Positions 17,302 to 33,583 of a stretch of 33,583 bases of DNA are shown piece by piece. Position numbers and translations under genes: made by a program. This DNA comes from a virus (taxonomy: Duplodnaviria > Heunggongvirae > Uroviricota > Caudoviricetes), in IMG/VR virus record IMGVR_UViG_2684622669_000021, positions 1-33,583 of that record; one strand, 5' to 3'. The notes under the pieces were generated by a model that saw nothing but the letters and a program-made list of their open reading frames with translations, ran no database searches and had not been told where the DNA came from. Positions within the stretch are counted from its first letter, which is position 1. Every line of letters begins with the position of its first letter.

Positions 17302-17378
17302 GTGGCATTAGCTCAGTTGGACAGAGCAACCGCCTTCTAAGCGGTTGGTCGCAGGTTCGAATCCTGCATGCCGCGCCA
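17302..17378 (+). tRNA. tRNA-Arg, anticodon UCU (reads AGA), with encoded CCA
   Basis: Manual cloverleaf: acceptor GTGGCAT/ATGCCGC (one G-U pair); D-stem GCTC/GAGC; anticodon stem ACCGC/GCGGT with loop CTTCTAA (U33, anticodon TCT, A37); variable loop TGGTC; T-arm GCAGG-TTCGAAT-CCTGC; discriminator G; CCA. Related to but distinct from chromosomal argU. Confidence 0.9.
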
Positions 17379-19422: not shown

Positions 19423-20015
19423 TGATTACCATCCTGACGTTCTTTGAGTCGCTTCCTAGCTGCCGCTATGCGATCAGCAATTGTCACATTCACATTAACA
19501 TCCAAGCGTTCTTTGAATGCGTTGACGTCGACGTGCTTACCAATCAGTTCTAGGTTCTTCACCTTGTCAGGCCATTTAATTTTTTTGAGGATTGTCTCTA
19601 TCGAGTCCTCGTTCATGTTCATGATGGTCGATGACAGATCAAAGCCGCTAAGCGTAGTGCGCCATATTTTCGGCCACTCGCGGATTGGCTTAAGGCTCCC
19701 ATCGTCGTTGAGGATATCAATCACGTCCATCTGGTCGATCTCCACCAGGCGCATGAGAACGTAATCAGCACTGACGCGCATTCGTTTGTTGCGCTCCTCC
19801 ATCAACTCGGCAATCCGTTTTTGAATGCGTTCATCGCGCATCATGACACTGGCTTTAACTGCCGCTGTATTTGGGGAGAATCCTGCGTTAATCGCAGCCT
19901 GAGTCTGGTTTTCAGGCGTTTTGATGTATGACTGGCAATAAGCCTCCTGCATTGCTGTGAGCGGCTTAAATTGCGTTGATTTGCGTTTATAGGTTTTAGG
20001 TTCAGCAGGCATCAT
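19419..20015 (-). CDS. Terminase small subunit (198 aa)
   Basis: N-terminal signature ...LTAMQEAYCQSYIKTPENQTQAAINAGFSPNTAAVKASVMMRDERIQKRIAEL matches the terminase small-subunit family pattern. Start reassigned to an internal ATG; the track ORF carries a 26-aa extension. Confidence 0.8.
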   Translation of the reverse strand: MMPAEPKTYKRKSTQFKPLTAMQEAYCQSYIKTPENQTQAAINAGFSPNTAAVKASVMMRDERIQKRIAELMEERNKRMRVSADYVLMRLVEIDQMDVIDILNDDGSLKPIREWPKIWRTTLSGFDLSSTIMNMNEDSIETILKKIKWPDKVKNLELIGKHVDVNAFKERLDVNVNVTIADRIAAARKRLKERQDGNQ

Positions 20016-20133
20016 AACCACCCTGGTAATTGTTACCGTTGTGGTAATAGTAACATGCAAAATAAAGCCGCCATAGTTGGCGACAGTATTCAAAACCCAT
20101 CAAATTCATCATGCATAATCTACTCGTGACATG

Positions 20134-20475
20134 TCACACTATTAATTTCGTTTCATGCCAGCCTTTAGTCACCCAGCATTGCGAGTCACCATTACACGGG
20201 CATGAATTAACTGGAACTCTCTCGCCGCACTTACCGCAACATTTTCTGCTGATCGATTTTATACGCCCGCGCACGCGTGCATCATCCTGGCGAATCAGTA
20301 AAGCTATATACTCACCAAATTCGTAAGGCGCACGCCCGGGGCGACGCGTGGCACAGTTACGCTCCAGCATTTCAATTTCCTGAGCATCAAGCACAATTTC
20401 CAGCTTACGCACACCAGATGCAGCTTGTCTGGCTCTCTGAGCGGCTTTGCGCTCTGCTGCTGATTTAGCCATCAA
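20134..20475 (-). CDS. Hypothetical protein (113 aa) with a C-terminal Cys-rich, Zn-ribbon-like motif
   Basis: C-terminal RKCCGKCGERVPVNSCPCNGDSQC and a basic helical N-terminus. Last gene before terS. Confidence 0.5.
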   Translation of the reverse strand: MMAKSAAERKAAQRARQAASGVRKLEIVLDAQEIEMLERNCATRRPGRAPYEFGEYIALLIRQDDARVRGRIKSISRKCCGKCGERVPVNSCPCNGDSQCWVTKGWHETKLIV

Positions 20476-20746
20476 TATTCACCTTTATCGCGTACACCTT
20501 TACCGGTTTATCGCCGAAGTGCGGATGTGTGATTGTCTTGATTTCATATCCGTCATACGGAACATCAATTCTGCGGCTGGAATCGTCGCGCTTCGGATAT
20601 CCCTTTGTGATAATCAGTCGGTCATATTCGCGGAACATAATTCGCTTATTCCAGTAGTCATTACACAGGCGATACTCTTCCGTTTTCTCTCCGCGAATCA
20701 TGGCATCGAAGTATTCACCTTTAACGGCAAGTTGCAGGTTAGCCAC
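20465..20746 (-). CDS. Small ASCH/PUA-like (DUF3850-type) domain protein (93 aa)
   Basis: MANLQLAVKGEYFDAMIRGEKTEEYR... resembles the small phage ASCH-like family. Recalled, not searched. Confidence 0.45.
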   Translation of the reverse strand: MANLQLAVKGEYFDAMIRGEKTEEYRLCNDYWNKRIMFREYDRLIITKGYPKRDDSSRRIDVPYDGYEIKTITHPHFGDKPVKVYAIKVNIDG

Positions 20747-21650
20747 GGTTAACCTCCTGTGGCGGTTCTGGTAGCGGCATCCAGTGGGTTACCTCTTTGA
20801 GATACAGGTCTTCGCCATCACCGTCATCCCAAGTGGGCTTGCCATCATTAAACCAGTCGCCATATACGCCGACCTGAGTGTTGGGGATGTTTGGTGGGTA
20901 GTTGTTTTTAAAGTCAGCTGCTAACACATAGCATTGTCGCTCTCCCATTTCAGGCATTCGCTCACTACAGCTTATCCAACTATCCGGAGTTACCGGAGAG
21001 TTGCCAGCCACTCTACGCAAAACAGCCTTAACCGCCTCAATACGGTCATCATCGTAACTTTCCGCCGTATCTATGCGGTCGAGCATGATGATGGCGTTAT
21101 CAATATCAGGATTGCCAGTCCACTCATTACTGCGATTGGATTCGGCAGCCTGGTTACCAGATGCGGGTTGATTGTCGGCCTTACCCAGTCTGTCGTCGCT
21201 GCATGAATGCCCTTCCAGCCAGGCCAATGCTTGTCGCATGAAATACGCAATATGTTTGCCGTGGTAATCGTCTTCATCGATGTGAAAAGCGATACTGCGG
21301 ATGTATTCAATTGCGTTTTCGATGGCCTCTAACGCTATCGGCGCTGGCGGAGTGGTATATAATTTTCGACATTTGTATATCCAACCGGCATGGTCAGGCG
21401 TGTCTGTAAAGCGCAAATCGTCTTCGTAGCACTCACGACTACGTTCTTTCCATTCCGTCCACGGAACACCGCTATTCCAGGTGGGGCGAGTGCAGGACTG
21501 ATACAGAACAGGCTCTGCTTCCAGCGATGCCAGCACAATTCGTGCCAGTTCTTCCGCTTCTTCTGCTGGCAGTACAACGTTGCTACCAGGTCCGTATGTT
21601 TCGCGCCACTGCTTGATTGTCAGCAGTCGCTCTTTGGTAATAGTGGTCAT
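20739..21650 (-). CDS. DUF551-domain phage protein (303 aa)
   Basis: C-terminal ...WISCSERMPEMGERQCYVLAAD...GDWFNDGKPTWDDGDGEDLYLKEVTHWMPLPEPP is the DUF551-type signature common in lambdoid prophages. ATGA overlap with the upstream gene. Confidence 0.6.
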   Translation of the reverse strand: MTTITKERLLTIKQWRETYGPGSNVVLPAEEAEELARIVLASLEAEPVLYQSCTRPTWNSGVPWTEWKERSRECYEDDLRFTDTPDHAGWIYKCRKLYTTPPAPIALEAIENAIEYIRSIAFHIDEDDYHGKHIAYFMRQALAWLEGHSCSDDRLGKADNQPASGNQAAESNRSNEWTGNPDIDNAIIMLDRIDTAESYDDDRIEAVKAVLRRVAGNSPVTPDSWISCSERMPEMGERQCYVLAADFKNNYPPNIPNTQVGVYGDWFNDGKPTWDDGDGEDLYLKEVTHWMPLPEPPQEVNRG

Positions 21651-21856
21651 GTGTTAATCCTCAAAACTTTATGCCCGGGCGCAAAAGCACGCGTTTTGTC
21701 TTTGCTTATTCGCCAGCCATCCTTGCGCGCCTCTTTTGCACAGCCAGCCCATGACGTACCGATATATTCACCGAAGTCTGGCGTTTGATATTTACCATTT
21801 GTACACTGGCGACAATCACAGTAGAGATGCATGGTGTAACTTGCGGCAATAGCCAT
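21647..21856 (-). CDS. Small Cys-containing protein (69 aa), unknown function
   Basis: ATG at 21854-21856 preceded by AAGGAGAG. Sequence MAIAASYTMHLYCDCRQCTNGKYQTPDFGEYIGTSWAGCAKEARKDG... The track ORF 21647..22018 extends into the upstream gene. Confidence 0.5.
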   Translation of the reverse strand: MAIAASYTMHLYCDCRQCTNGKYQTPDFGEYIGTSWAGCAKEARKDGWRISKDKTRAFAPGHKVLRINT

Positions 21857-21857
21857 A

Positions 21858-22628
21858 TCACTCTCCTTTGATGCGAATACCAGCAGCGCGCTCGGCTTCA
21901 CTTTGTTCCCAAAACCACTTGTGAAGCGCCATAAGCTTTTCGTCAATCGGTGCATATTTGCGATTAAAGTAGGCCTGAGCATCTTTCTCAGATTCGTCCG
22001 GTAATTCGCCAGGGCCAAACAGTGTGTTATAAATCCATGCTAGTCCGCTCTTAGCGTCGCCAGTTGCCTGCCATTCGATAATGGCAGCCTGCATGACCAG
22101 AATGTTTTTCCCGATTAATAGGTCCAGTTCTTTGTACCGGTTGCGGATGTATGCATTCTCGCTTTGTAATTTTGCGTTGCGCTTTTCTGAGGCTTCAAGT
22201 AACGCCTGCTTATCGCGTAGCGCTTCTTCCAGTTCAGCAACATGGCATTCACTATCAATAAGGTTGTTCTCTGCTGCTTCAAGCTCAACACGCAGCTTCC
22301 CAACCGTAAGCGCAATCTCCTCGTTCTCCTGATCGCGGCGTTTTATGTATTGCTGGTTTCTTTCCCGTTCATCCAGTAGTGCCAGCACGGTAGCCGGGTT
22401 AGCCTCTGCTATGAATTCAGCGTTTGCATAAGCCTGAGCATCTGTTTCAACCAGGCAGTTAACATGACATTCTGCAATCACGCCACCGGGTTCTCCTTTC
22501 CATTTTTGACAAACAAAAACTCCTGTTATATTCCCATGCTGATTGACCGATGTATGCCCTACGATGTAGCTCCCTTTCGTTGCCTTTTCTGCCGCTTCAC
22601 GCAGTGCCTGATAGTTAATTTTGCTCAC
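21858..22628 (-). CDS. ead/Ea22-like family protein, paralogue 1 (256 aa)
   Basis: GTG start after AAGGAGGCAACCA. N-terminus [18 protein letters not shown]...; central coiled coil. GTGA overlap with the upstream paralogue. Confidence 0.7.
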   Translation of the reverse strand: MSKINYQALREAAEKATKGSYIVGHTSVNQHGNITGVFVCQKWKGEPGGVIAECHVNCLVETDAQAYANAEFIAEANPATVLALLDERERNQQYIKRRDQENEEIALTVGKLRVELEAAENNLIDSECHVAELEEALRDKQALLEASEKRNAKLQSENAYIRNRYKELDLLIGKNILVMQAAIIEWQATGDAKSGLAWIYNTLFGPGELPDESEKDAQAYFNRKYAPIDEKLMALHKWFWEQSEAERAAGIRIKGE

Positions 22629-22653
22629 TGGTTGCCTCCTTTGCGAAGCTGTT
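22621..22653. repeat. Junction repeat (copy 1) shared by the Ea22-like paralogues: RBS + GTG start + stop of the upstream gene
   Basis: TTGCTCACTGGTTGCCTCCTTTGCGAAGCTGTT is identical at 22621-22653 and 23205-23237. Confidence 0.8.
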
Positions 22654-23212
22654 CAGCAATACTTACGCATATCTCTGCGCCTCTAATCAGCCCCGGAACG
22701 TTCTTGTTTGGCCCAACTTCACCATCAACAAAATCAATCATCGCGTTACGAGCCATATCCACCCCCTGCGCACGTACTTCAGCCAGGAGAGCGTCGGTAG
22801 CTGGGGTTTCCGTGAAGTTGTCCTCCCAACCGTAGTACTCCTGACGACAGAAGTTATTAAATTCCTTCTCCGACTGTTTAAGCGCCGCATTCTCCACTGC
22901 CAGCGCCGCGCACTTGGCCTCAAGAGCTGCAACCACTTCCTGATGGTCTTTGTACTTAACGTATGAGCCGGAGATGTCATCACCTTCGGTGTTTAGCCAT
23001 GCGTCATTGCAATTCACTGCGTAGGTTCTGATGCTGATGCTCTCCCGCCCCTGACAGACGCCAGGCCAGTCAATAAAGTATCCGCAATGCCTACCCTCAG
23101 ACGTGCGCGCAGGATAAATGCCGTTATGACCCGGCAAAATATATGCTACCCATTCATCTTGCGTTGCCTGTTCCGCCGCCTCGCGCAGTTCTTGATAGTC
23201 AATCTTGCTCAC
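22625..23212 (-). CDS. ead/Ea22-like family protein, paralogue 2 (195 aa)
   Basis: GTG start at 23210-23212 after AAGGAGG. N-terminus SKIDYQELREAAEQ...; C-terminus ...ETPATDALLAEVRAQ...AEQLRKGGNQ shared with paralogues 3 and 4. Confidence 0.7.
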   Translation of the reverse strand: MSKIDYQELREAAEQATQDEWVAYILPGHNGIYPARTSEGRHCGYFIDWPGVCQGRESISIRTYAVNCNDAWLNTEGDDISGSYVKYKDHQEVVAALEAKCAALAVENAALKQSEKEFNNFCRQEYYGWEDNFTETPATDALLAEVRAQGVDMARNAMIDFVDGEVGPNKNVPGLIRGAEICVSIAEQLRKGGNQ

Positions 23213-23237
23213 TGGTTGCCTCCTTTGCGAAGCTGTT
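23205..23237. repeat. Junction repeat (copy 2)
   Basis: Identical 33-mer to 22621-22653. Confidence 0.8.
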
Positions 23238-23892
23238 CCGCACAATGCAGCAGGGCGTCCGTCGCTTCTTTCACCGTAACGATGTCGCCATCGTCCAGCC
23301 CGACAACCGTCGCGTCCTTAACGAACACCGAGCAAAGGTCATTAAACGCCTGCGCCCGCACTTCAGCCAGGAAAGCGTCGGTGGCTGGCGTTTCCCGTGA
23401 ACGGTAAGACCAAACAATGTCGTCTGTTTCACTGGGTTCTTCATGAGAGCAATTTGGGCAGACAGCAGTACAACCAGCATGATCTTCTATGAGCATCTTC
23501 AGCCACGAGTTCTCCTCCGCCAGCGTCACGCGACTGGCCTCCAGTTCTGCTACGCGCTGTTTTGCAGCATCCAGTTCAATCGACAATTTTTCCAACTGCT
23601 CTTTATGCTTTTTATATTCCTGATATGCGTGCCAAGACTGACCTTTGCGCACACTATCAGTGATATCAGTAATCTGTTCTGGTGTTAGCGTGGTCAGTGG
23701 CTGTGATGGGAAAATAAGCACTTTCCCGGAATCCCAATCAAAACCAGCGTGAATTGACTGAACCTCAACTGAAGGTGTTGAACCAATGCTGCCAGGCGAA
23801 TGAACAACGATTGTTACATCCATATCGCGACGATGGCTGTGGTTGTTGGACAAAATACGATTCACCAACTCAGAAAATTTGGAAAATTTCAT
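23209..23892 (-). CDS. ead/Ea22-like C-terminal module fused to a distinct N-terminal domain (227 aa)
   Basis: ATG start. N-terminus MKFSKFSELVNRILSNNHSHRRDMDVTIVVHSPGSIG... is unrelated to the SKINYQ N-termini. C-terminus ...[15 protein letters not shown]...AEQLRKGGNQ is shared with the other paralogues. Confidence 0.65.
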   Translation of the reverse strand: MKFSKFSELVNRILSNNHSHRRDMDVTIVVHSPGSIGSTPSVEVQSIHAGFDWDSGKVLIFPSQPLTTLTPEQITDITDSVRKGQSWHAYQEYKKHKEQLEKLSIELDAAKQRVAELEASRVTLAEENSWLKMLIEDHAGCTAVCPNCSHEEPSETDDIVWSYRSRETPATDAFLAEVRAQAFNDLCSVFVKDATVVGLDDGDIVTVKEATDALLHCAEQLRKGGNQ

Positions 23893-24179
23893 GCTGATTC
23901 CCCTTTCTCTGCTCTCTCCTGTCGGAACATCACTATCATCAGGTCGCCTTTTGTCGCTATCCTCGCTGTTGTGCCTGGTTCAATGCTGCCAAGTTCAAAT
24001 GCGTCATAGAACGCTTCTAATGCCTTCTGGCGTAGTTCCTGTTTGCGCCGTTTTTTCCACTGTTTCAGGAAAATGGAACCCAGCCATCGCCATGTACGGG
24101 ACATGATGTAAAGCCAACCGAGAAGTGCCAGACCGGTATTTAGGGCCGTATCGAGCGTTATCGTGGTGTCGATATTCAC
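23889..24179 (-). CDS. Small predicted single-pass membrane protein (96 aa) inside the Ea22-like array
   Basis: GTG start after AAGGAAGCAGCCA, overlapping the upstream stop. Hydrophobic segment ALNTGLALLGWLYIMSRTWRWLGSIF followed by a basic stretch KQWKKRRKQELRQK. Confidence 0.55.
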   Translation of the reverse strand: MNIDTTITLDTALNTGLALLGWLYIMSRTWRWLGSIFLKQWKKRRKQELRQKALEAFYDAFELGSIEPGTTARIATKGDLMIVMFRQERAEKGESA

Positions 24180-24877
24180 TGGCTGCTTCCTTTGCGAATC
24201 TGTTCCGCCCATTCTTCAAGGGATTTCTCCGCATATTCACCAGACAGGCCATCAATCGGATGCGCTTCATTAGCCAACTCTTCTTTCGCTGACAAAATCA
24301 TGCGTGTAACGTCGAAAACTTCACGCAAAGACTTATTGATAAATCCGTGATTGAACGCAGCAGCAAGACGGCTGGCGGTATAGTTAATCCCCTCGTTGCG
24401 TGCTTCCGCACGAATTTCAGCCAGAAAAGCATCGGTAGCTGGAGTTTCGCTGTGGTGTAGGGCATCGTTGATAATCATTGCAGCAACACCAGCCTGCCCT
24501 GCATCCGTGACCGACACATGATCAAGAGTTACAGCCATTGCGTGTTTCAGCCCGGCGTTCTCTGCCACCAGAGCCGCGAGCTTAGTCTCAAGCGGTGCTA
24601 TTCGGCACATAGCATCAATATTTGTGTCCTCCAGGCGCTTAATTTCACCAAGTAGCTCCAGTGCAACCTTTGGGTTGAATGCGGCAATATAACGAGCGTT
24701 GTTCTCTGCGTTTTTCAGTCCATCAAAGCCGGTCCATTTGATAACATCTTCACATCGTTTATCACCGGGCGTATGCACAGCATACGTACCTGTACCCGTC
24801 GAAATAAACGCGACCCATTCGCCCTGTGTTGCCTGTTTTGCTATCTCACGTAGTGCCTGATAGTTAATTTTGCTCAC
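24176..24877 (-). CDS. ead/Ea22-like family protein, paralogue 4 (233 aa)
   Basis: GTG start at 24875-24877 after AGGAGGCAACCA. N-terminus [23 protein letters not shown]...; conserved ...[15 protein letters not shown]... segment. Confidence 0.7.
24177..24204. repeat. Junction repeat (copy 3, diverged)
   Basis: CACTGGCTGCTTCCTTTGCGAATCTGTT, a diverged copy of the same junction. Confidence 0.6.
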
Positions 24878-25616
24878 TGGTTGCCTCCTGGCAAAGCTGG
24901 GCGACAATATCGCGATATTTATTCAGCTCCCGCAGCGCGACACAGACTCGCTCCCATTTCCGGATATCACTTTTCGCCCGACGCAGTTCGCGGTTTGCCT
25001 GTCGCAGCGATGGCAGAACCAGATTATCCACTCGATTCTCAAGCGGCTGCACAATGTCTGCCACAGTTTCTGTTTTAATATCTTCCTGTGTTGCAGCTTC
25101 CTGTCCCGGTAACGCAACACCTGCTGGTTGAGGAAAGGCCTTACCATCACTTTCCGTTACCAGCGCGGCTTTCGGCTCTGCTGGTAAATTATCGCCCGGC
25201 ATGCAGTAACGAAATTTACCGTTCTGATTAACGCGTGCCAGCCGCCCCGTTGCGGTTACCACCGCCAGCGTGGAAGCAACCTTGCGAGTACTGACACCGA
25301 ACTTACCCGCCAGTTCCTCACACGTTTTAGCCCCATCCTGACCGATAAACTCAATCATCATGTCTGCGGTAACTTTTTGTTCGACCTCCCCGGTCAGCAT
25401 ATCCTGTGCTTCAGATTTTACTGGCCGCTCTTCGGTTACCCGGGATTCACCTTCGCCAGCCAGAGACCAGGTGTGACCAGTTTTATCAACAACGCCATTT
25501 CTTTTGAGTTCCCACAGCTCGTTGACAGCCTCTTCACGACTGATATCAAGTCGCGCAGCCAGTTCTACCGACGTGGCTTTTCCCATTGCTTTCAGTGCGT
25601 CAAATACAGTTTCCAT
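24864..25616 (-). CDS. Winged-helix DNA-binding protein (250 aa) with two HTH-like modules
   Basis: ATG at 25614-25616 after GGGAGGAAA. Two HTH-like segments: [28 protein letters not shown] and [31 protein letters not shown]. Recalled as a common prophage family of unknown function. Confidence 0.55.
24871..24900. repeat. Junction repeat (copy 4, diverged)
   Basis: TGCTCACTGGTTGCCTCCTGGCAAAGCTGG, a diverged copy of the same junction. Confidence 0.6.
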
Positions 25617-25638
25617 TAAAATTTCCTCCCGGTAAAAA

Positions 25639-26385
25639 TCACTTCGCAATTCCTGGCTGGACGACATTCGGACGCCAGCTCTCCCAGTTAAAATTCACCC
25701 ATCGCCCGCCGTTCATGGTCATGCGATCCATAATCCGCTCGCCGAGCAATGTTTTCATGGCCTCATAGTTCAGGTTTGTCAGCATCCCCACGCTGCGCAT
25801 CGACGCTGTCCGGCGATCAACAATCTGGTGCAGCACCACCTGCTCGTTTTTTGTCTCGCGCTGAATGCCAATTTCATCAAGAACCAGCAGATCCACTTGG
25901 CACAGTTCCCGCAAAAATTTTTCGCCTGATTGCCCGTCGTCATAGCTGGCGTGTAGAGCACTCATGACATCAGCCACGGTAACCACAATCACTGTCTGGC
26001 CATCTTTCAGCAGGCGATTCCCGATAGCCGCCGCCAGATGGTTTTTTCCGGTACCAGGTTTTCCGCTGAACGCAAAATTTGTACACCCGGTCATCAGTTC
26101 ATCAGCGATAGATTTCGCCTGGTTCAACGCGTATCGCTGACCGTCGTTCTGCACCTGGTAATTCGCAAACGAGCATTTGCGGTGCAATGGCTGGATGCCA
26201 GAGCGATTCAGAATTTTTTCCACCCGCAACTGACGATTCTGACGGTTGATCTCCTCACAACGTTTCTGGCCTTCGGAAAGTTGCCACTCGCGCCACTCCG
26301 CTACCGTTTTGAATGGGGCGGTTACATGTGGCGGGGCCAGTCTGCGGATACGTTCAAGAATGCCTCCTGCCGCAATATTTTTCAT
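25639..26385 (-). CDS. DnaC-like replicative helicase loader (AAA+ ATPase), 248 aa
   Basis: Walker [16 protein letters not shown] and Walker [10 protein letters not shown]. Lies right after the replisome-organiser gene. Confidence 0.85.
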
Positions 26386-26391
26386 GGTCAG

Positions 26392-27357
26392 TTACCCCCT
26401 GAAGCCCGGCGGAATTTCGGTATCCGGTTCAGAAATGTGATTCACACAACGCTGTACAGGCGAACGCCCCAGACGAATAACCAGCTCATCCCATTTTTCG
26501 CGAAGCTTTGACGGGCTCATGACGTTTTTTACCCAGAAGGGATCCCGCTGCACCCGACCAAACATTTCGCAAATTTGTCTGTGAGTTCTGCCATCCAGCA
26601 TCCGCATTGTGCGCACATCATTGGCCCATGCAGCCCAGTTGGGTTCTTTCGGTCGCATGATTTCGCCATCATCGCTGGCAGCCTGCTCGTAAAGACTCAC
26701 GATTCGTCCCCAGATCCACTGCGCACACGCTAAATCTTCCTGGCTACCCCACTGGCGTTTTTTCGCACTGAACACAACCGCGTCAGGGTGTCGGGTTAAA
26801 AAATCCTGTTCAGCCGTCTGCATGTCCGGTTGCGAAGCTTCCGGACGAGAAGTGTTTTTATTCTCTGTAGTGATCTCTGTTGTATTCTCTGTAAGATCAT
26901 CAGGCCATTTTGACCCGATGACATTGTGTCGTTTTGAACCAATGGAGCGTGTCATTTTGGCCTCTTCCATCGTGTCATTTTGACCTGATGGAGCGGCGCA
27001 TTTTGACCTGATGGATTCGCTCACTTTGCCACCATCTAAAAGCTCGCTCTCGTAATTAATCGTGTAAAAATTAGTCATGTCACGCTTTGATTTGTTGAGC
27101 TTTTCGCAACGCAAAAGCCCCAGCGCTTTCAGACTTGCAAATGCGCGTTTTAACGTTGACTCTGACCAGAACGGGAACTGTTCCAGCCATTGTTCTGTTG
27201 TGTTATAAATCCAGCGAACACCATCACATTCCATGCCGGAACCGGTATCTCTCAACCAGTAATGCAGCTGCTGTAACACAATGGCTTCGTTCAGACCTAT
27301 TTTCATCGCCAGCTGAGTGTTAATAACCAGTGGGCGTTCAGCAAAAAGAAGACTCAT
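26392..27357 (-). CDS. Replication initiation/replisome organiser protein (O-like), about 321 aa
   Basis: Position upstream of the DnaC-like gene. N-terminal HTH-like region. Start uncertain: ATG at 27355-27357 or TTG at 27411. Confidence 0.6.
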   Translation of the reverse strand: MSLLFAERPLVINTQLAMKIGLNEAIVLQQLHYWLRDTGSGMECDGVRWIYNTTEQWLEQFPFWSESTLKRAFASLKALGLLRCEKLNKSKRDMTNFYTINYESELLDGGKVSESIRSKCAAPSGQNDTMEEAKMTRSIGSKRHNVIGSKWPDDLTENTTEITTENKNTSRPEASQPDMQTAEQDFLTRHPDAVVFSAKKRQWGSQEDLACAQWIWGRIVSLYEQAASDDGEIMRPKEPNWAAWANDVRTMRMLDGRTHRQICEMFGRVQRDPFWVKNVMSPSKLREKWDELVIRLGRSPVQRCVNHISEPDTEIPPGFRG

Positions 27358-27859
27358 AATTCCATCCGGCTTTTTGTTGATATTGCTGACGATACGCACG
27401 CTTGAAAGCAATGGCTTTTTCTATAAGCTCGTCAGTCTCACGTTCCACAACAGCTGGATCCGCAAAAAGCAGCCCGGACTCCACCACATCGCCATATTCT
27501 TTGTTTAACCCGGCGATCATGTACGTAATGCTTTTTCCGTCAGTAATTTCACAATACAACCTGAAATCGCTGATCCGGATAGCCTCCATAATTGCCGGAA
27601 TCAGCGCCGTGAATTTTTCACGCTTATCCCTGGTGTCGATAGCTTTCCAGCGTTCGAATATCTTCACCCTGTTAACGCCCAGCGCCCGTTGATCAACCGC
27701 GCCATCATCAAACGTGACGCGATGAACATCGATGTTCGGGCGTTCTTTCAGAGCCCAGAATGCTTCCGTGATTAATATCGTCGCCTGCTCCTGCGTCATT
27801 CCTGGTCGGCATACCCAGGCATCCAGAGCCTCGCGAGCCTGCTCAGGAGTGAATATCAT
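27338..27859 (-). CDS. Hypothetical early protein at the cII/YdaT position (173 aa)
   Basis: Lies between the Cro-like gene and the replication genes. Assignment is by position only. Confidence 0.45.
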   Translation of the reverse strand: MIFTPEQAREALDAWVCRPGMTQEQATILITEAFWALKERPNIDVHRVTFDDGAVDQRALGVNRVKIFERWKAIDTRDKREKFTALIPAIMEAIRISDFRLYCEITDGKSITYMIAGLNKEYGDVVESGLLFADPAVVERETDELIEKAIAFKRAYRQQYQQKAGWNYESSFC

Positions 27860-28118
27860 TGTTCACCGCCAGTGATTCATTCGACATACACTTATTTTCA
27901 CAAGGTAGTCCATCTGTTGGGTTGGGATAAATGTCAGGGCGAAGTTCGTGGGGAGTAATTTCCCAATTCAGTAATGCACAGAGTGACGACACGCGTTCAG
28001 CAGGAACCTTGCCTTTAATGAACCACTTGCCTACGGCCTGGGAGCTAATGCCAAAGTGTTTGCCAATGTCAGTTTTCGACATTTTTTTAGAGATCTTATC
28101 GTGAATTTGATTACTCAT
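27843..28118 (-). CDS. Cro/YdaS-like HTH transcriptional regulator (91 aa)
   Basis: HTH segment SKTDIGKHFGISSQAVGKWFIKGKVPAERV. Divergent from the repressor gene. Start at the ATG at 28116-28118 after GGTGGAAAG; the track ORF extends to a GTG at 28145. Confidence 0.6.
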   Translation of the reverse strand: MSNQIHDKISKKMSKTDIGKHFGISSQAVGKWFIKGKVPAERVSSLCALLNWEITPHELRPDIYPNPTDGLPCENKCMSNESLAVNNDIHS

Positions 28119-28157
28119 ACTTTCCACCAGTACTATTAATTTCACCTACGCTACCAT

Positions 28158-28195
28158 CAAAAACTATAAGTTTCAACACAAAACCTATAGTTTTG
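28158..28195. promoter_or_regulatory. Operator-like pair of near-palindromic 14-15-bp sites between the divergent repressor and Cro-like genes
   Basis: AAAACTATAAGTTT (28160-28173) and AAACCTATAGTTTT (28181-28194) are inverted copies of one motif with a CTATAG centre. Confidence 0.55.
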
Positions 28196-28224
28196 CTGAT
28201 TGGTGAAACCTTTGGTTGTATACT
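28194..28224 (+). promoter_or_regulatory. Candidate maintenance promoter for the repressor, likely giving a leaderless mRNA
   Basis: TATACT (28219-28224) lies 6 nt upstream of the repressor ATG at 28231 with no SD. Possible -35 TTGCTG at 28194-28199. Confidence 0.35.
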
Positions 28225-28230
28225 TAAAAA

Positions 28231-28641
28231 ATGAGTAAAATAAACCATCCAATATTTGCTGAGAGAGTTCGGCAAGCAATGAGCGAACATGGCTGGTCGT
28301 TAGCCGGTCTGGCTAAAAAGGTTATGCTGTCCCATACCGCTGTGCGTAAGTGGGCAACAGGAGAAACCATTGCCAGCGGAGAAAGATTAAAAAGACTTGC
28401 CGCGGTAACAGGAAAACCAGAACATTGGTTTTTTATGCCGCTAAATGAACATTCAAAGGAAGAAGATGCACCACCACTAATCCAGCTTGACGACAAAGAA
28501 AAGGCGCTATTGTCCCTTTTTAATCAGTTGCCAGAAACGGAAAAGCTGAGACTAATCATGCACACAAAAAGCATTCTTCATGAAATGGATCTTCTAAAAA
28601 ACGATGTATACGACATAATCAATGATATTCAAAAACAATAA
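28231..28641 (+). CDS. Prophage repressor, XRE-family HTH, RacR/CI-like (136 aa)
   Basis: N-terminal HTH FAERVRQAMSEHGWSLAGLAKKVMLSHTAVRKWATGETIASGERLKRLAAVTG. Divergent from the Cro-like gene and followed by its own terminator. Confidence 0.7.
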   Translation: MSKINHPIFAERVRQAMSEHGWSLAGLAKKVMLSHTAVRKWATGETIASGERLKRLAAVTGKPEHWFFMPLNEHSKEEDAPPLIQLDDKEKALLSLFNQLPETEKLRLIMHTKSILHEMDLLKNDVYDIINDIQKQ

Positions 28642-28653
28642 GTTACATGAAAA

Positions 28654-28678
28654 AAGCGCCTCCCTGGCGCTTTTTTTA
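28654..28678. terminator. Intrinsic terminator after the repressor gene, possibly bidirectional
   Basis: AAAAAAGCGCC-TCCCT-GGCGCTTTTTTT: 6-bp GC stem flanked by an A-run and a T-run. Confidence 0.7.
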
Positions 28679-28712
28679 TCCTCACAAATAAAACTTTATG
28701 TTCCATTGCCTA

Positions 28713-28741
28713 TTGACCAATAAAACCAATAGTTTTACCAT
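28713..28741 (+). promoter_or_regulatory. Candidate early-left promoter with an embedded operator copy
   Basis: TTGACC (28713-28718), a 17-nt spacer containing AAAACCAATAGTTTT (28722-28736), then TACCAT. The operator copy is one mismatch from the 28181-28194 site. Confidence 0.4.
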
Positions 28742-28819
28742 TCATTCCATCAACAACGAACCGCATCGTTGTCAGGCTAAAGTTCCGCTACCCCGGCGTT
28801 AAGGGGAAATGAGGTCAGC

Positions 28820-28975
28820 ATGGATACTATCGATCTTGGCAACAACGAATCTCTGGTGTACGGCGTGTTTCCAAACCAGGACGGCACCTTCACCGCAATG
28901 ACGTATACCAAAAGCAAAACGTTTAAAACCGAAAATGGTGCCCGTCGCTGGCTGGAAAGAAACTCAGGTGAGTGA
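28820..28975 (+). CDS. Small early protein (51 aa), YdaF-like
   Basis: ORF below the track cutoff, read directly: MDTIDLGNNESLVYGVFPNQDGTFTAMTYTKSKTFKTENGARRWLERNSGE, with a GAGG RBS. Family assignment is from memory. Confidence 0.5.
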   Translation: MDTIDLGNNESLVYGVFPNQDGTFTAMTYTKSKTFKTENGARRWLERNSGE

Positions 28976-28976
28976 T

Positions 28977-29105
28977 ATGGATTTTGACACAATCATGGAA
29001 AAGGCTTACGAAGAATACTTCGAAGGCCTTGCCGAAGGCGAAGAAGCTCACAGCTTCAACGAATTTAAACAGGCGCTTTCCAGTTCGGCAAAATCTAACG
29101 GCTGA
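28977..29105 (+). CDS. Small acidic early protein (42 aa), YdaG-like
   Basis: MDFDTIMEKAYEEYFEGLAEGEEAHSFNEFKQALSSSAKSNG. The ATG lies 1 nt after the upstream stop. Confidence 0.45.
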   Translation: MDFDTIMEKAYEEYFEGLAEGEEAHSFNEFKQALSSSAKSNG

Positions 29106-29134
29106 TAAGCGAAACAGCACCGCGAGGAATCAGT

Positions 29135-29353
29135 ATGCAGAAACGAGAACCCGTCATCATCGCGCCAGACTATACCGATGATGAACTTTATGAGTGGATG
29201 CGCCAGAAAATTAATGCAGCGCAGGATCTGAAATGGGCCAATGAAGCCAGGGCTAAGCAGGCTGAAAATCTGTCCGCTCTGGAGCAGGATATCACCAGGC
29301 TGGAAAAAGCAGCGGCATTAAGCATTGCCAGAATGATTACATACCCGCGTTAA
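29135..29353 (+). CDS. Small early protein (72 aa), unknown function
   Basis: GAGGA RBS. Helical charged protein MQKREPVIIAPDYTDDELYEWMRQKINAAQDLKWANEARAKQ... Confidence 0.5.
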   Translation: MQKREPVIIAPDYTDDELYEWMRQKINAAQDLKWANEARAKQAENLSALEQDITRLEKAAALSIARMITYPR

Positions 29354-29375
29354 TAGCTAACCAACGAGGCTAATA

Positions 29376-29705
29376 ATGGAATTTAAAGATTTACCAATGC
29401 AATTCCAGGAAATGGCAGCGAATATAGTTCGTTCCCAACTGGCGACTCTTGACCTGAGTACCGTAGAAAAAGAAACCATCGATACTATATCCGGTAACGT
29501 GCGTCGTGCCTTTATCGGTCTGTACGAAGAGAAGCAGCTCTCTGATAACCAGGATTTACATGAAAAATACTTCCTGGATCTAATGGACATCATTAATAAG
29601 GGGTTTGGCTTGTTAATGGAAAAGAAAGGGATTCGGATAGAACCCCTTGAAAATTGCTTCGTAACAAGAAGCATCAATTCTTTTGATTCAAAACAAGAGA
29701 ATTAA
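29376..29705 (+). CDS. Hypothetical protein (109 aa), AT-rich gene
   Basis: GAGG RBS 6 nt before the ATG. Its 3' end overlaps the 3' end of the convergent minus-strand gene by about 32 nt. Confidence 0.55.
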   Translation: MEFKDLPMQFQEMAANIVRSQLATLDLSTVEKETIDTISGNVRRAFIGLYEEKQLSDNQDLHEKYFLDLMDIINKGFGLLMEKKGIRIEPLENCFVTRSINSFDSKQEN

Positions 29706-29949
29706 TTACAGATTTAACATGCTCTTTCTCATGATTGAAGCTCTCAGGGTTGAAAGTGCCCGGCTGAAGCGAGTCGATATAATCAACGAGATTCTTTCGT
29801 ACCGTTTCATCTTTATTCATGGCAGATGCAAGGTATGAAATTGCTAACAATGTTATATCACTACGCGCCGCAGCATGCTGTAGTGTTTTATCAAAATCAT
29901 TAATTTTCCGTATAAGAGAGTTAAGAGTTTCATTGACATCAAACCCCAT
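29674..29949 (-). CDS. Hypothetical protein (91 aa) on the opposite strand within the early-left operon
   Basis: Start at the ATG at 29947-29949 (MGFDVNETLNSLIRKINDFDK...) after a strong AGGAGG-ATGAA RBS. AT-rich. The track ORF 29674..30027 carries a 26-aa extension. Confidence 0.55.
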   Translation of the reverse strand: MGFDVNETLNSLIRKINDFDKTLQHAAARSDITLLAISYLASAMNKDETVRKNLVDYIDSLQPGTFNPESFNHEKEHVKSVINSLVLNQKN

Positions 29950-30062
29950 TTCATCCTCCTGAGGGTTAGTAATTAAGGAGTTCTCCACGGGTGAGGTGGA
30001 GTGCGTGCGCCGGACACGGGTGAGCATCCGGCACTGACAATACCAACGTCAACGGCGAAGAC

Positions 30063-32165
30063 ATGACTGAGATTGAGGAGAATATGCTCCTGCCGGTTTC
30101 AGGTCAGATTCTGCCTGTTCGATGGCTGGCACAGCACGGCAGCGAAAAACCGATCACACACGTTTCGCGGGGCGAACTACGCGCATTACATAACGCACAG
30201 GATGAAAAACTTCCCGCCGTTACCGCGCTGGCCATCTCAAATAAAGCAGCGCAACTCGAACCGCTGGAAATTCGCGATCTCCACAAACTGGTTCGTGACA
30301 CTGACAAAGTTTTCCCTAATCCTGGTAATTCAGACCTGGGACTGATGACTGCTTTTTTCGAAGCCTACCTGGGCGCTGACTACACCGATCGCGGTCTGCT
30401 GACAAAAGAGTGGATGAAAGGAAATCGTGTTTCACGCATCACCCGCACGGCTTCCGGTGCTAATGCCGGTGGAGGGAACAAAACCGATCGCAATCCGAAT
30501 TTAGTACACACCTTCGATACGCTGGATGTGGAGATTGCAGCGGCCACACTTCCGATGGATTTTAATATTTATGAAATTCCGGGCAGCGTTTATCGTCGCG
30601 CAAAAGAAGTCGTCCGGAAGAAAGAAAGTCCGTTCAAAGAATGGTCCGCGGCACTTCGCGCAATCCCGGGTATCCTGGATTATTCCCGCGCCGCTATTTT
30701 TGCACTTATCCGGAGCGCACACCCTGAGTTTTATCATTACCCGGGACGTCTTCAGGGGTATATCAACGCCTATTTAACAGAGACTGATCACGAGAACCCT
30801 TCCGAGGAAACTCTCGCTGCTGCACGACATACACCGGAAAAAGATATCCTGGAAGAAGTTAACCGCGAACTGGCTGCTGAACGCGAAACAGAAGAAGAAA
30901 AAAATAATGAGGAAAAATCACAACCGTCTGACGCAATGGCAGATGAACAGGCAACGGCTGAAACAATGGAACCGGATACAACTGAACATCGCCAGGACAC
31001 GCAATCGCTGGATGCTCAGGCACAGATAGATCCAGTTAATCAGGTAAAAGTTACCGCTGACGAAGTAAACAAAATTATGCAAGCAGCCAATATCAGCCAG
31101 CCTGACGCCGATAAGTTGCTTGCGGCCTCTCGCGGTGAATTTGTTGCAGGGATTAGCGACCCGAATGATCCGAAATGGGTGAAGGGGATTGAAACCCGCG
31201 ATTCTGTGAACCAGAACCAACAAGAATCGGAACAGAACGACCAGAAAGCGGAACAAAACAGCCCAAATGCGTTACAAAACGAGCCAGAAACGAAACAGCC
31301 TGAACCAGTGGCGCAACAGGAAGTGGAAAAAGTTTGCAATGCCTGCGGTCAGTCTGGCGGGGATAACTGCCCTGACTGTGGTGCGGTGATGGGCAACGCA
31401 ACATACCAGGAAACATTCGATGACGAGAATCAGGTTGAAGTTCAGGAAAATGATCCGGAGGAAATGGAAGGCGCTGAACATCCACAAAAGGAGAATGCTG
31501 GCAGCGCTCAGGACCACGCCAGCGATAATGAAACTGGCGAGACGGCAGATCCCTTAATTGCAGTGAACGGTCATCACATTATCACATCCACCAGCAGAGT
31601 GTGGTACCACCTGATGATCGACCTTGAAACAATGGGAACCAACACCAATGCGCCCATCGTGGTTATTGGTGCGGTTTTCTTCGACCCACAAACAGGGGAA
31701 ATCGGGCCAGTATTTTATATCGTTATCAGTCTGACTGACGCAATGAATACAGGGGCTGTTCCTGACGGTGGAACCATCGAATGGTGGCTGAAGCAGTCCA
31801 GTGAAGCCAGAGCTGCCATTTTAACAGACCAGGTAAAACTGAAGGATGCCCTTTCGCGGTTTCGGGAGTTCATCAACGAATACTCAGATGAAAAATTAGT
31901 TCAGGTATGGGGTAATGGTGCAACTTTCGATAACGCAATTTTGCGCACCTCATACGAACACCTGGACATCCCCTGCCCGTGGCGCTACTACAACGATCGC
32001 GATGTACGCACAATCGTTGAGCTGGGGAAAGCCATAGACTTCGATGCCAGAACGGCTATTCCATTCGAAGGTGAGCGCCATAATGCACTTGATGACGCCC
32101 GTTACCAGGCAAAATACGTTTCAGCTATCTGGCAAAAACTGATCCCGAGTCAGGCTGATTCTTAA
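30063..32165 (+). CDS. RecE-like protein: RecE N-terminal/linker region fused to a C-terminal DEDDh 3'-5' exonuclease domain (700 aa)
   Basis: N-terminus [36 protein letters not shown]..., the acidic Gln/Glu-rich linker and the Zn-ribbon [20 protein letters not shown] are recognised from RecE (exodeoxyribonuclease VIII). The C-terminal 200 aa carry DnaQ-like motifs: Exo I MIDLET, Exo [14 protein letters not shown], Exo [16 protein letters not shown]. Confidence 0.7.
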
Positions 32166-32226
32166 TGTTCAACTGTCGCCGGTTGTCGTTGATATTCTGC
32201 AACTGGCGCGTTCCGGAGTGATAGCC

Positions 32227-32496
32227 ATGAGCGAACAGTACCTGATAACGCTCGACGAGTGGAAACCAAAACGGTTCAGTCTCCCAATAACAAACACTAC
32301 CCTGGTGAAATACGGAAAACTAGGATACATCGTTCCAAGACCACAAAAAATTCGTGGGCGTTGGCTGATAGATCGCCGAGCAGTATTTGTTGGGCCTGGT
32401 GAAACGGGAATTGCGCCGGAAATTCATACTGGCGATGATGATGCACTGAAGGAGATTTTAACTCATGTCACCGAGGCCACGAAAAAACAGCACTGA
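32227..32496 (+). CDS. xis: Excisionase (Xis-like), 89 aa
   Basis: Immediately upstream of and overlapping int. Basic winged-helix-like sequence YLITLDEWKPKRFSLPITNTTLVKYGKLGYIVPRPQKIRGRWLIDRRAVF. Start at the ATG at 32227 after GGAG. Confidence 0.6.
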   Translation: MSEQYLITLDEWKPKRFSLPITNTTLVKYGKLGYIVPRPQKIRGRWLIDRRAVFVGPGETGIAPEIHTGDDDALKEILTHVTEATKKQH

Positions 32497-33583
32497 CGTA
32501 GCCGGTCTTTACGAAAAGTTTGATCGCAGAACTGGCAGAGTTTACTACCAGTATAAAAATCCTGTGACTGGAAAATTTCACGGACTCGGAACAGACAAAG
32601 GTAAGGCAGAAAAAATCGCTTCCACAGCCAATCAGCGAATAGCTGCAGCAGAAGCTGAATATTTCATGCGCAAAATTGATGAAAGTCCGTCAGCAACAAA
32701 ACGTCGGGGTATCAGATTAAAGGCATGGGTTGATCGATATCTGAAAATACAGGACACGCGACTGAAAAATGGAGATATTGCAGCTACAACTCACAAAGAA
32801 AAAGCCCGAATGGCTGCATACCTGGTTTCCCGTCTGGGAAACCACCCATTGAAAGAACTGGAAGTAAGAGACTTTGCATTAATACTGGATGAGTGGCTGG
32901 ATAAAGACATGGTCAGCACAGCGAGAGTAAATCGCGGATTATGGGTTGATATTTATAAAGAAGCACAGCATGCAGGGGAAGTCCCTCCCGGATGGAATCC
33001 TCCGGAGGCTACCCGTAAACCGATCCCTAAAGTAACCAGAGCCAGGCTCACTCTGGAAGACTGGCAAAAAATTTACAACGCAACGCCTGAAAAACACTTT
33101 ATCCGTAACGCAATGCTTCTTGCGATTGTTACTGGTCAGCGCCGTGATGACATTTGCCACATGCGTTTTTCAGATGTGTGGAACGAACACTTGCATATCA
33201 CCCAGGGAAAAACCGGAATGCGTCTGGCGTTACCGCTTACACTACGCTGTGATGCTATTGGGATAACGTTAAAAGAAGTTATTGATGGGTGCCGAGACAG
33301 AATATTAAGTCCATATCTAATCCATAGTCGGCACCAGAAACAACCGAAGCCGATGAGTAAAGACAACCTGAGCGACTACTTTGCCAAAGCACGGGATCTG
33401 GCTGGGATAATTCCACCAGCAGGAAAAACTCCGCCAACATTTCATGAACAACGCTCTCTATCAGAACGGCTGTACCGTGCACAGGGTATCGATACAAAAA
33501 CATTACTAGGACATAAAGTCCAGGCAACCACCGATCGCTATAACGATACTCGAGGTCAGGAATGGGTTAAGTTGGTTATTTGA
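32465..33583 (+). CDS. int: Lambda-family tyrosine integrase (372 aa); stop codon is the last triplet of the window
   Basis: N-terminal ...YYQYKNPVTGKFHGLGTDKGKA... and C-terminal ...TFHEQRSLSERLYRAQGIDTKTLLGHKVQATTDRYNDTRGQEWVKL parallel lambda Int (...YYCYRDPRTGKEFGLGRDRR... and ...FHELRSLSARLYEKQ...LLGHKSDTMASQYRDDRGREWDKI). The catalytic-region R, H-x-x-R and Y are present. Confidence 0.9.
   Translation: MSPRPRKNSTDVAGLYEKFDRRTGRVYYQYKNPVTGKFHGLGTDKGKAEKIASTANQRIAAAEAEYFMRKIDESPSATKRRGIRLKAWVDRYLKIQDTRLKNGDIAATTHKEKARMAAYLVSRLGNHPLKELEVRDFALILDEWLDKDMVSTARVNRGLWVDIYKEAQHAGEVPPGWNPPEATRKPIPKVTRARLTLEDWQKIYNATPEKHFIRNAMLLAIVTGQRRDDICHMRFSDVWNEHLHITQGKTGMRLALPLTLRCDAIGITLKEVIDGCRDRILSPYLIHSRHQKQPKPMSKDNLSDYFAKARDLAGIIPPAGKTPPTFHEQRSLSERLYRAQGIDTKTLLGHKVQATTDRYNDTRGQEWVKLVI

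Follow-up and report, generated by a model that had tools for sequence, protein, structure and literature searches.

RecE carries a PD-(D/E)XK nuclease domain at residues 564-866, and its N-terminal region has no assigned function and can be removed without loss of nuclease activity (PMC11611040). T4 DexA (PDB 8KEL/8KEN), a characterised 3'-5' DNA exonuclease (PMC12153337; note in the T4 record), is a stand-alone protein of 227 aa. The PF16473 (DexA-like) family further includes EcD/HREX (PMC12153337), a stand-alone E. coli protein of 189 aa, and its founder Rv2179c of M. tuberculosis, which by its Pfam description is a stand-alone exoribonuclease from a non-phage context. Among E. coli lambdoid prophages, exonucleases combining PF06630 with PF16473 (PHROG 2082, 20376 and 607) occur for instance in mEp460 and Tritos and as WP_406865668.1. 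The window analysed here, a stretch of virus DNA of 33,583 nucleotides, contains the same gene with the same xis and int neighbours, but its copy lacks the first 121 codons, and dicF, dicB and ydfD are absent as well.

The remaining exonuclease ORF (30063..32165, + strand) comprises 700 codons plus a stop; over all 700 aa, its product is 100% identical to residues 122-821 of P0001, an intact relative of 821 aa. With a probability of roughly 0.7, we regard it as the 5'-deleted remnant of a standard early-left gene of mEp460/Qin-type prophages, encoding a DexA-like DNA exonuclease on a RecE-type scaffold. In such a protein, the 5'-3' PD-(D/E)XK nuclease of RecE is replaced by a DEDDh 3'-5' exonuclease on 590 homologous, non-catalytic residues.

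Domains of the window protein

The initial annotation described a RecE scaffold on which a DEDDh domain takes the place of the canonical nuclease, and profile searches bear this out. Residues 1-500 match the NCBIfam RecE model NF007259 at positions 122-603 of its 877 (E=1.7e-210), residues 516-690 match PF16473, and the RecE nuclease family PF12684 has no Pfam match in the window protein, nor is a RecE nuclease chain found among its PDB sequence matches. The E-values of the RecE-like part and of the PF16473 domain exclude chance. At 701 bits, the NF007259 score lies under the curated cut-off of 1269, so that the RecE equivalog threshold is not reached. Alignment to Rac RecE confirmed the relationship: full-length P0001 is 57% identical to RecE residues 50-591 by BLASTP (about 560 non-catalytic N-terminal residues), and homology ends at ...ETGE(T/V)ADP(L/V)I, just ahead of the RecE nuclease domain. 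The PF06630 scaffold thus has two alternative C-terminal partners, PF12684 or PF16473. Intact alleles carry the full PF06630 region, of which only model positions 142-203 of 203 are left in the window copy (E=4.4e-14, above the cut-off).

The intact 821-aa protein begins with domain 1, a small alpha/beta domain (aa 1-100), and continues with the helical domain 2 (~120-400), a long acidic linker with a knuckle, and the DEDDh exonuclease. The two domains of the RecE-type N-terminal region are confidently modelled and have no relative among solved structures. Domain 2 is encoded at 30063..30902 (+ strand; window aa 1-280, P0001 122-401) and is predicted with pLDDT mostly >90; it likewise finds no relative among solved structures. 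The acidic Q/E-rich linker and the CxxC...CxxC motif that had been read from the sequence were both located. The E/Q/A/D-rich linker (30912..31592, + strand; aa 284-510), with its net charge of -35, is predicted to be disordered and is common to RecE. Within it, a zinc-knuckle-like CxxC-x8-CxxC motif (31335..31379, + strand; aa 425-439) is kept in Rac RecE; the sole Pfam match of this region is a weak one to DZR (E=0.048), and model confidence is low.

The DEDDh 3'-5' exonuclease domain (31608..32132, + strand; aa 516-690) matches PF16473 (Rv2179c/DexA-like) over model positions 2-177 of 177 (E=2.1e-69, 233 bits vs a cut-off of 27), so that the model of the Rv2179c family is covered in full. 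Its best PDB sequence match is T4 DexA (E=1.5e-8). Structure prediction upheld the proposed DEDD fold: P0001 has the identical domain, and its AF2 model shows a DnaQ-like fold there (pLDDT >95 at aa 633-815), with DexA 8KEL as the best Foldseek match (E=4e-9, TM about 0.7); REXO2, Orn and RNase T come next, and ERI is also a significant structural neighbour. All five DEDDh residues are intact on the + strand, namely D520 (31620-22), E522 (31626-28), D623 (31929-31), H673 (32079-81) and D678 (32094-96), aligning with DexA D7, E9, D119, H186 and D191. From these sequence features the protein is probably a metal-dependent 3'-5' exonuclease. Exonuclease domains of this kind also abound as stand-alone proteins of 180-195 aa, and the domain is likely able to fold and act alone. 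Identity to DexA is only 22-28%, and DexA has extra loops.

The nature of the substrate was weighed on the same evidence. One alternative is a 3'-5' exoribonuclease comparable to Rv2179c, Orn or RNase T, with which the phage would process or degrade short oligoribonucleotides or the transcripts of host or phage. The name of PF16473 derives from the Rv2179c exoribonuclease, many members are called '3'-5' exoribonuclease' by NCBI, and the structural proximity of Orn, REXO2, RNase T and ERI makes an RNA substrate possible, which speaks against our main reading. However, the closest relative in both sequence and fold is a DNA exonuclease, the scaffold is common to the DNA-end-processing enzyme RecE, and the exoribonuclease names in databases are transferred from the family label. 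We therefore consider an RNA-directed role unlikely.

A further alternative is a nuclease of the HREX type, serving anti-phage defence or superinfection exclusion, which would degrade the 5hmC DNA of incoming T-even phages. EcD, an E. coli homologue of DexA, is reported to digest T4 DNA and to protect cells from T4 (PMC12153337). A 189-aa IMG/VR protein that fits the EcD primers given in that paper and shows the reported Ala78 is homologous to the exonuclease domain along its entire length (36% identity, E=3e-35), with an alignment that is ungapped over the first 78 domain residues, and the gene studied here is prophage-borne. Against this, the DexA residues that the paper links to 5hmC recognition, W152 and D169, are replaced by Tyr643 and Ala657 in the window protein, the alignment of the D169 loop being less certain. 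The tetramer-forming Asp that is lost in the dimeric 5hmC-only form (DexA D90, EcD A78) is kept here as D595. At these three positions the EcD-like protein has Ala78, Trp (at Y643) and Glu (at A657), in contrast to Asp, Tyr and Ala in the window protein, and on these residue tests (Tyr643, Ala657, Asp595) we rejected membership in HREX. Moreover, the gene lies in an early-left operon that is repressed in lysogens and is not placed for expression by the lysogen. PADLOC returned one marginal match of 23 residues only, which we did not accept as evidence for a known defence system. Overall, a defence role of this kind appears quite improbable.

A deletion between direct repeats removed the start of the gene

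The N-terminal truncation noted in the initial annotation is substantiated by the identity with P0001, although the gene was not cut at an internal Met as had been supposed. Instead, comparison with an intact relative (L002) revealed that 1,275 bp have been deleted between two direct repeats of 9 bp. The 9-mer GCACTGACA is present twice in L002, at 4086-4094 and 5361-5369, 1,275 bp apart, and in one copy at the deletion junction in the window (30031..30039, no strand given). Between the repeats, L002 carries DicF (4338-4389), dicB, DUF1482/ydfD and the beginning of the exonuclease gene, whose start is at L002 5030. The deletion removed dicF, dicB and ydfD together with about the first 112-121 codons of the exonuclease gene, which code for domain 1 and its linker. 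DicF, found in the intact relative, is accordingly absent from the window, and the native start and Shine-Dalgarno (SD) sequence of the exonuclease gene are gone. In the AlphaFold model of an intact relative, the deletion follows the domain boundaries. As had been described, the frame upstream of the ORF is open back to an in-frame TGA (30021..30023, + strand), which lies to the left of the junction in DNA that is intergenic and upstream of dicF in intact relatives. The repeat junction is clean, at 9 bp. The deletion could be an assembly artefact.

The deleted allele was found only in the source of the window. Of 5,426 complete E. coli genomes, at least 1,072 possess the greater part of the region, labelled "exonuclease" or "3'-5' exoribonuclease", and none of the 5,426 contains the junction in one piece. 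A 693-aa product is on record in one contig and assembly only, that from which the window derives, and a 700-aa product starting at ATG 30063 was found in no contig searched. Together with the 100% identity to P0001, this pattern suggests that the deleted allele is rare and recent. The window copy presumably represents ordinary prophage decay, a recent by-product of the deletion. Conjecturally, the deletion may have been favoured by ridding the strain of the toxic division inhibitors DicF and DicB.

What remains of the gene is free of stops and frameshifts, and no decay is visible. ATG 30063 has no SD sequence. A fortuitous internal ribosome-binding site (30075..30086, + strand) consists of GAGGAG (30075-80), AAT and ATG 30084, the codon of Met8, with a predicted anti-SD pairing of -8.1 kcal/mol at ATG 30084 vs -2.1 at ATG 30063. 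The gene caller used ATG 30084 as the start in the source assembly, giving the 693-aa product. A promoter and terminator scan of 28100-32600 yielded counts at or below the shuffled background, and transcription of the remnant ORF is presumed only from the layout of the operon. The remnant would still be translatable from Met8, preceded by GAGGAG, when early-left transcription reads through, and the product of 693 aa would comprise domain 2 and the linker as well as an exonuclease whose catalytic residues are intact.

Alternatively, the ORF may be a dead remnant that yields no stable or active protein, its open frame persisting only because the deletion is recent. The loss of the native start and SD, the lack of an SD at ATG 30063, the 141 of 203 PF06630 model positions that are missing and the occurrence of the allele in a single assembly all fit this explanation, and identity of 100% to intact alleles implies that selection has not yet had time to take effect. 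It is tempered, however, by the strong SD-like GAGGAG before Met8, the start chosen by the gene caller, by the removal of an entire predicted domain plus a flexible linker, which leaves domain 2 and the exonuclease domain whole, and by the abundance of stand-alone exonuclease domains, which makes it likely that this one folds and acts by itself. We regard a dead remnant as possible but doubtful. Conversely, since stops and frameshifts are lacking, an SD and ATG are found at Met8 and one whole domain was removed cleanly, it is possible that the truncated product is functional, or even selected. In the source strain, the product without domain 1 might still be active, or it might be deregulated.

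Gene neighbourhood and putative function of the intact protein

Downstream of the exonuclease ORF directly follows the excisionase gene xis (32218..32496, + strand) and then the integrase gene int (32465..33583, + strand). The host genes potC and potD sit just past the end of the window. The order exonuclease-xis-int is common to the viable phages mEp460 and Tritos and to about 20 Enterobacteriaceae loci. In mEp460/Qin-type lambdoid prophages, the early-left operon runs from a cI-like repressor through small ORFs, dicF, dicB, ydfD and the exonuclease to xis and int. The small conserved neighbours vary by genus: E. coli has dicB and ydfD, other genera an Rrf2-like winged-helix protein. The Rac RecE gene is likewise a prophage gene adjoining xis/int; in contrast to it, the window gene is not followed by recT.

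The lack of a RecT partner, with xis as the next gene, had been pointed out from the sequence alone. In PHROGs searches, none of 20 early-region ORFs matched the RecT, Bet, Erf or Sak families, and a tblastn search with Rac RecT as query, for which Rac served as positive control, gave no match in the window at E<=1. The observation holds, but the absence is no local peculiarity: a RecT/Bet/Erf/Sak-like gene is absent from the window, the SLK172 prophage, mEp460, Tritos and about 20 other loci alike, and its absence is the norm for the whole family.

This distribution bears on whether the protein could act in recombination with an annealing or strand-exchange protein supplied from elsewhere, be it host RecA or an unrecognised phage protein, as a RecE analogue of reversed polarity. 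RecA and annealases load on 3' tails, which 3'-5' resection destroys. Such resection would consequently remove the very substrate of the presumed partner, no annealase-like gene is found at any of the loci listed above, and the small conserved neighbours differ between genera. Pointing the other way, about 590 residues are held in common with RecE, the gene adjoins xis/int, where lambdoid recombination genes sit, and T4 DexA participates in the homing of introns, which depends on recombination (PMC12153337). On balance, we give this alternative little credence, and it is reasonable to assume a role other than RecET recombination, as the initial annotation had suggested.

The most likely function, judged from the combined analyses, is DexA-like 3'-5' trimming of DNA ends in lytic growth without an annealing partner. 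The intact protein would trim DNA 3' ends in a metal-dependent manner, would need no single-strand-annealing partner, and its RecE-type N-terminal region would act as a tether or targeting module. A broader and rather unlikely extension of this proposal is that the RecE-type N-terminal region is a portable targeting module, coupled to nucleases of either polarity in enterobacterial temperate phages, and that the DEDDh version functions independently of an annealing protein. Candidate roles for the DEDDh version may include the removal of 3' tails to control host recombination, or the degradation of DNA made by defence systems.

A common prophage gene family

The fusion of PF06630 and PF16473 is already known as a common, catalogued and annotated prophage gene family, which occurs in many Enterobacteriaceae genera. 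The window protein matches PHROG 2082/20376 with E=1e-222 and 2e-206. Intact alleles measure 818-822 aa, and the versions of mEp460 and Tritos 823 aa. In the literature searched, we found no paper on the fusion of a RecE scaffold with a DEDDh domain. The initial annotation correctly read the sequence as what is here an annotated and common prophage gene with its 5' end missing, and the finding in itself matters little. Labels such as "exodeoxyribonuclease VIII" or "RecE family" are frequent among members of the family, although these have neither a RecE nuclease nor RecT, and it would be a mistake to treat PF06630+PF16473 proteins of this kind as RecET recombineering systems. The coupling of a single scaffold to nucleases of opposite polarity is a sensible starting point for approaching what the N-terminal region of RecE does.

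A RecE-type scaffold with a DEDDh exonuclease domain

The remnant ORF (30063..32165, + strand, 700 codons) is preceded by an in-frame TGA at 30021-30023, and the frame between the two is open, with the same codons that the initial annotation had read there. In profile searches, the NCBIfam RecE equivalog model (877 positions) matches residues 1-500 of the product with its positions 122-603 (E=1.7e-210), at a score of 701 bits that lies under the curated cut-off of 1269, and only the last third of PF06630, the RecE N-terminal family, is represented (positions 142-203 of 203). Residues 516-690 cover the whole PF16473 model (Rv2179c-like 3'-5' exoribonuclease domain; E=2.1e-69), with a weaker Pfam match to the general RNase_T/DEDDh family and none to the PD-(D/E)XK nuclease family of RecE, which bears out the proposal that a DEDDh domain stands where RecE has its nuclease. 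The only solved structures matched by sequence were entries 8KEL and 8KEN of DexA, exonuclease A of T4.

For alignment, the domain was set beside stand-alone homologues and the DexA sequence given in the T4 genome record. D520, E522, D623, H673 and D678 correspond to DexA D7, E9, D119, H186 and D191, and the domain has the intact catalytic set of a DEDDh exonuclease. The DEDD fold expected from the motifs was recovered by structure prediction: the AlphaFold2 model of a full-length relative, identical over the exonuclease domain, has pLDDT >95 in that domain, and Foldseek against the PDB placed DexA first (E=4e-9, target TM 0.67-0.75), ahead of REXO2, RNase T, ERI and oligoribonucleases. In two fused members among the cluster representatives, P0131 and P0152, catalytic positions are substituted (E643K; D744A or D744N; D799G in P0152; numbering of P0001, an intact 821-aa relative), and their exonuclease domains may be inactive with the scaffold kept.

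The recE and recT sequences came from the MG1655 Rac prophage, and RecE was set against P0001. Residues 58-620 of P0001 align to RecE 50-591 at 57% identity, a stretch that takes in the acidic linker and the motif beginning CNACGQ(S/T), so that the RecE homology claimed for the N-terminal and linker part, including its start region and Cys motif, holds in a real alignment. The homology stops abruptly at ETGE(T/V)ADP(L/V)I. As the RecE nuclease domain comprises residues 564-866 (review, PMC11611040), an end at RecE 591 puts the swap point in the N-terminal ~30 residues of the assigned domain, and nearly the whole nuclease domain has thus been replaced. The scaffold is common to RecE and the window family, whereas RecE's own PD-(D/E)XK domain is absent from the window protein; PF06630 pairs with either PF12684 (RecE type) or PF16473 (window type). 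The N-terminal region of RecE is a domain of unknown function, dispensable for nuclease activity, that aids linear-linear recombination (PMC11611040).

Origin and rarity of the deleted allele

Intact homologues in a large protein collection are 818-822 aa long and carry PF06630 and PF16473. P0001 occurs on 89 contigs, and the window product is 100% identical to it over all 700 residues. Window DNA up to 30039 aligns with an intact reference locus (L002) up to 4094, and from 30025 onward with L002 from 5355; the 9-mer GCACTGACA is found twice in L002 (4086-4094, 5361-5369) and in a single copy in the window (30031-30039). Judged from these alignments, the truncation appears to have come from a deletion of 1,275 bp at short direct repeats, in which dicF, dicB, ydfD and the 5' part of the exonuclease gene were lost. 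The initial annotation was therefore right about the N-terminal truncation but not about a cut at an internal Met: the cause is the repeat-flanked deletion, and ATG 30063 is the codon for residue 122 of the full-length protein.

The AlphaFold model divides the intact protein into an alpha/beta domain 1 (aa 1-100, pLDDT >90) and a helical domain 2 (aa ~120-400), joined by a linker of low confidence (aa 102-113); the exonuclease domain comes after an acidic, disordered stretch that spans aa 405-630. With these boundaries, the deletion is predicted to take out domain 1 and the linker cleanly, leaving both absent from the window copy. The junction is adjoined on its left by a minus-strand ORF (29674-30027, -), convergent to the early-left operon, which has no PHROG match and in relatives is given as a hypothetical protein of about 92 aa (start near 29949).

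ATG 30063 is without a Shine-Dalgarno sequence (anti-SD pairing -2.1 kcal/mol); ATG 30084 (Met8) has GAGGAG upstream at 3-nt spacing, and its -8.1 kcal/mol resembles real genes of the window. The 700-aa product has no database record, and the 693-aa product from Met8 has one in a single contig only, BBWB01000018.1 (GCA_001515025.1), whose first 33,583 bases are the window. Together with this single-contig record, the lack of any complete E. coli genome covering the deletion junction in a single aligned piece suggests that the deleted allele is rare, and its 100% identity to intact alleles suggests that it is recent. The truncated remnant may be expressed; a promoter and terminator scan of 28100-32600 gave counts no higher than in shuffled sequence.

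A widespread family without an annealing partner

The initial annotation had also noted a missing RecT partner, and none emerged here. No RecT, Bet, Erf or Sak was found among the 20 early-region ORFs (19.4-30.0 kb) compared with PHROGs, which comprise regulators, replication proteins, ea22-like proteins and unknowns; tblastn with Rac RecT over the window and 24 related loci matched Rac alone, and the annotation of the nearly identical prophage of E. coli SLK172 holds no annealing-protein gene. In mEp460 and Tritos, both viable temperate phages, the order is cI ... dicF-dicB-ydfD-exonuclease(823 aa)-xis-int. Full-length fused homologues occur in Klebsiella, Citrobacter, Kluyvera, Enterobacter, Leclercia, Kosakonia, Phytobacter, Pluralibacter and others (one genome per species), and at 19 of the 20 fused loci examined (all but L056) two ORFs come after the exonuclease gene, one of 80-95 aa (111 aa in L080) and then one of 355-431 aa, which fit xis and int in size. 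An exonuclease with no annealing partner is normal for the fused family.

Outside Escherichia, a conserved 112-123-aa ORF with the Rrf2-like winged-helix signature SYLEQIFxKLR...RGPGGGY lies 5' of the fused gene, in place of dicB and ydfD (L012 4428-4796; L016 4224-4592; L021 4428-4796; L024 4459-4806; L017 4462-4797; L052 4499-4837). Within the window prophage, a tRNA-Arg gene (anticodon TCT; 17302-17378, +; Rfam, 69 bits, and ARAGORN) is flanked by morphogenesis genes and the early region. In the early region (19419-26385, -), the replication genes (O-like, 26392-27411; DnaC-like, 25639-26385) are followed by four ea22-like paralogues (21858-24907, each matching phrog_368/250/492) and then directly by a small terminase (19419-20093). 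Between the replication genes and the small terminase, neither a Q antiterminator nor a lysis cassette was seen; the SLK172 prophage differs.

Some match to the region is present in 4,779 of 5,426 complete E. coli genomes, and at least 80% of it in 1,072. The gene falls in PHROGs families 20376, 2082 and 607, and NCBI names the proteins 'exonuclease', '3'-5' exoribonuclease (domain-containing protein)' or 'exodeoxyribonuclease VIII / RecE family', the last of which is misleading. When 1.84 billion cluster representatives were searched exhaustively with HMMER, 11,787 matched at E<=1e-3; the best 150 of these include 18 with both parts, 62 with the RecE-type part only and 70 exonuclease-only proteins, mostly stand-alone and 180-195 aa long. 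This is an old and diverse architecture that databases already list; our literature search found no paper discussing it.

In SLK172 (NZ_CP017631.1, L001), RefSeq splits the gene into a 'RecE family' pseudogene (3817-4182) and a 536-aa 'exonuclease' (4531-6141); nothing interrupts the frame between a point before 3706 and 6141, an 821-aa product (P0001) is on record for the same chromosome, and the split looks like an annotation inconsistency. A full-length homologue (83% identity) in a MAG labelled Veillonella parvula (L009, JAGZPX010000007.1) and stand-alone domains (55-60% identity) in assemblies labelled Chryseobacterium sp. 18061 (L058/L071) and Actinomycetes (a MAG, L045) look like binning or contamination errors and not real host range.

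Putative function

Most likely, the intact protein is a metal-dependent 3'-5' exonuclease that would trim DNA 3' ends in lytic development, a reading drawn from T4 DexA, a 3'-5' DNA exonuclease, as the nearest relative in sequence and fold, from the scaffold common to a DNA-end-processing enzyme and from the position beside xis and int in the early-left operon. The substrate may instead be RNA, as suggested by the PF16473 family name and by Orn, REXO2 and RNase T as structural neighbours. A minority reading is an anti-T4 defence role of the HREX type, in which EcD, an E. coli DexA homologue, digests 5hmC-containing T4 DNA and protects against T4 (2025 paper, PMC12153337). Using the published EcD primers, we recovered from viral contigs a 189-aa EcD-like protein whose sequence opens with MIDTET, whose residue 78 is Ala as reported for EcD, and whose 3' end matches; its identity to the window domain is only 36%. 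DexA W152 and D169 serve 5hmC recognition and D90 tetramer formation (PMC12153337); these are Trp, Glu and Ala78 in the EcD-like protein but Tyr643, Ala657 and a retained Asp595 in the window protein. These residue differences, and the location of the gene in a repressed operon, make the defence role the lesser reading. In the main reading, the RecE-type region would act as a tether or targeting module. The truncated copy probably arose as a side effect of the deletion, which took DicF and DicB, toxic inhibitors of division, with it.

The observation of the initial annotation is confirmed and its description supported, and what the locus holds is a 5'-deleted allele, specific to the strain, of a prophage gene family that is common and has been annotated before. 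Its interest lies at the level of this family and is not peculiar to the window locus: one scaffold has been joined to nucleases of opposite polarity, and the putative function of the exonuclease family is a second such point.
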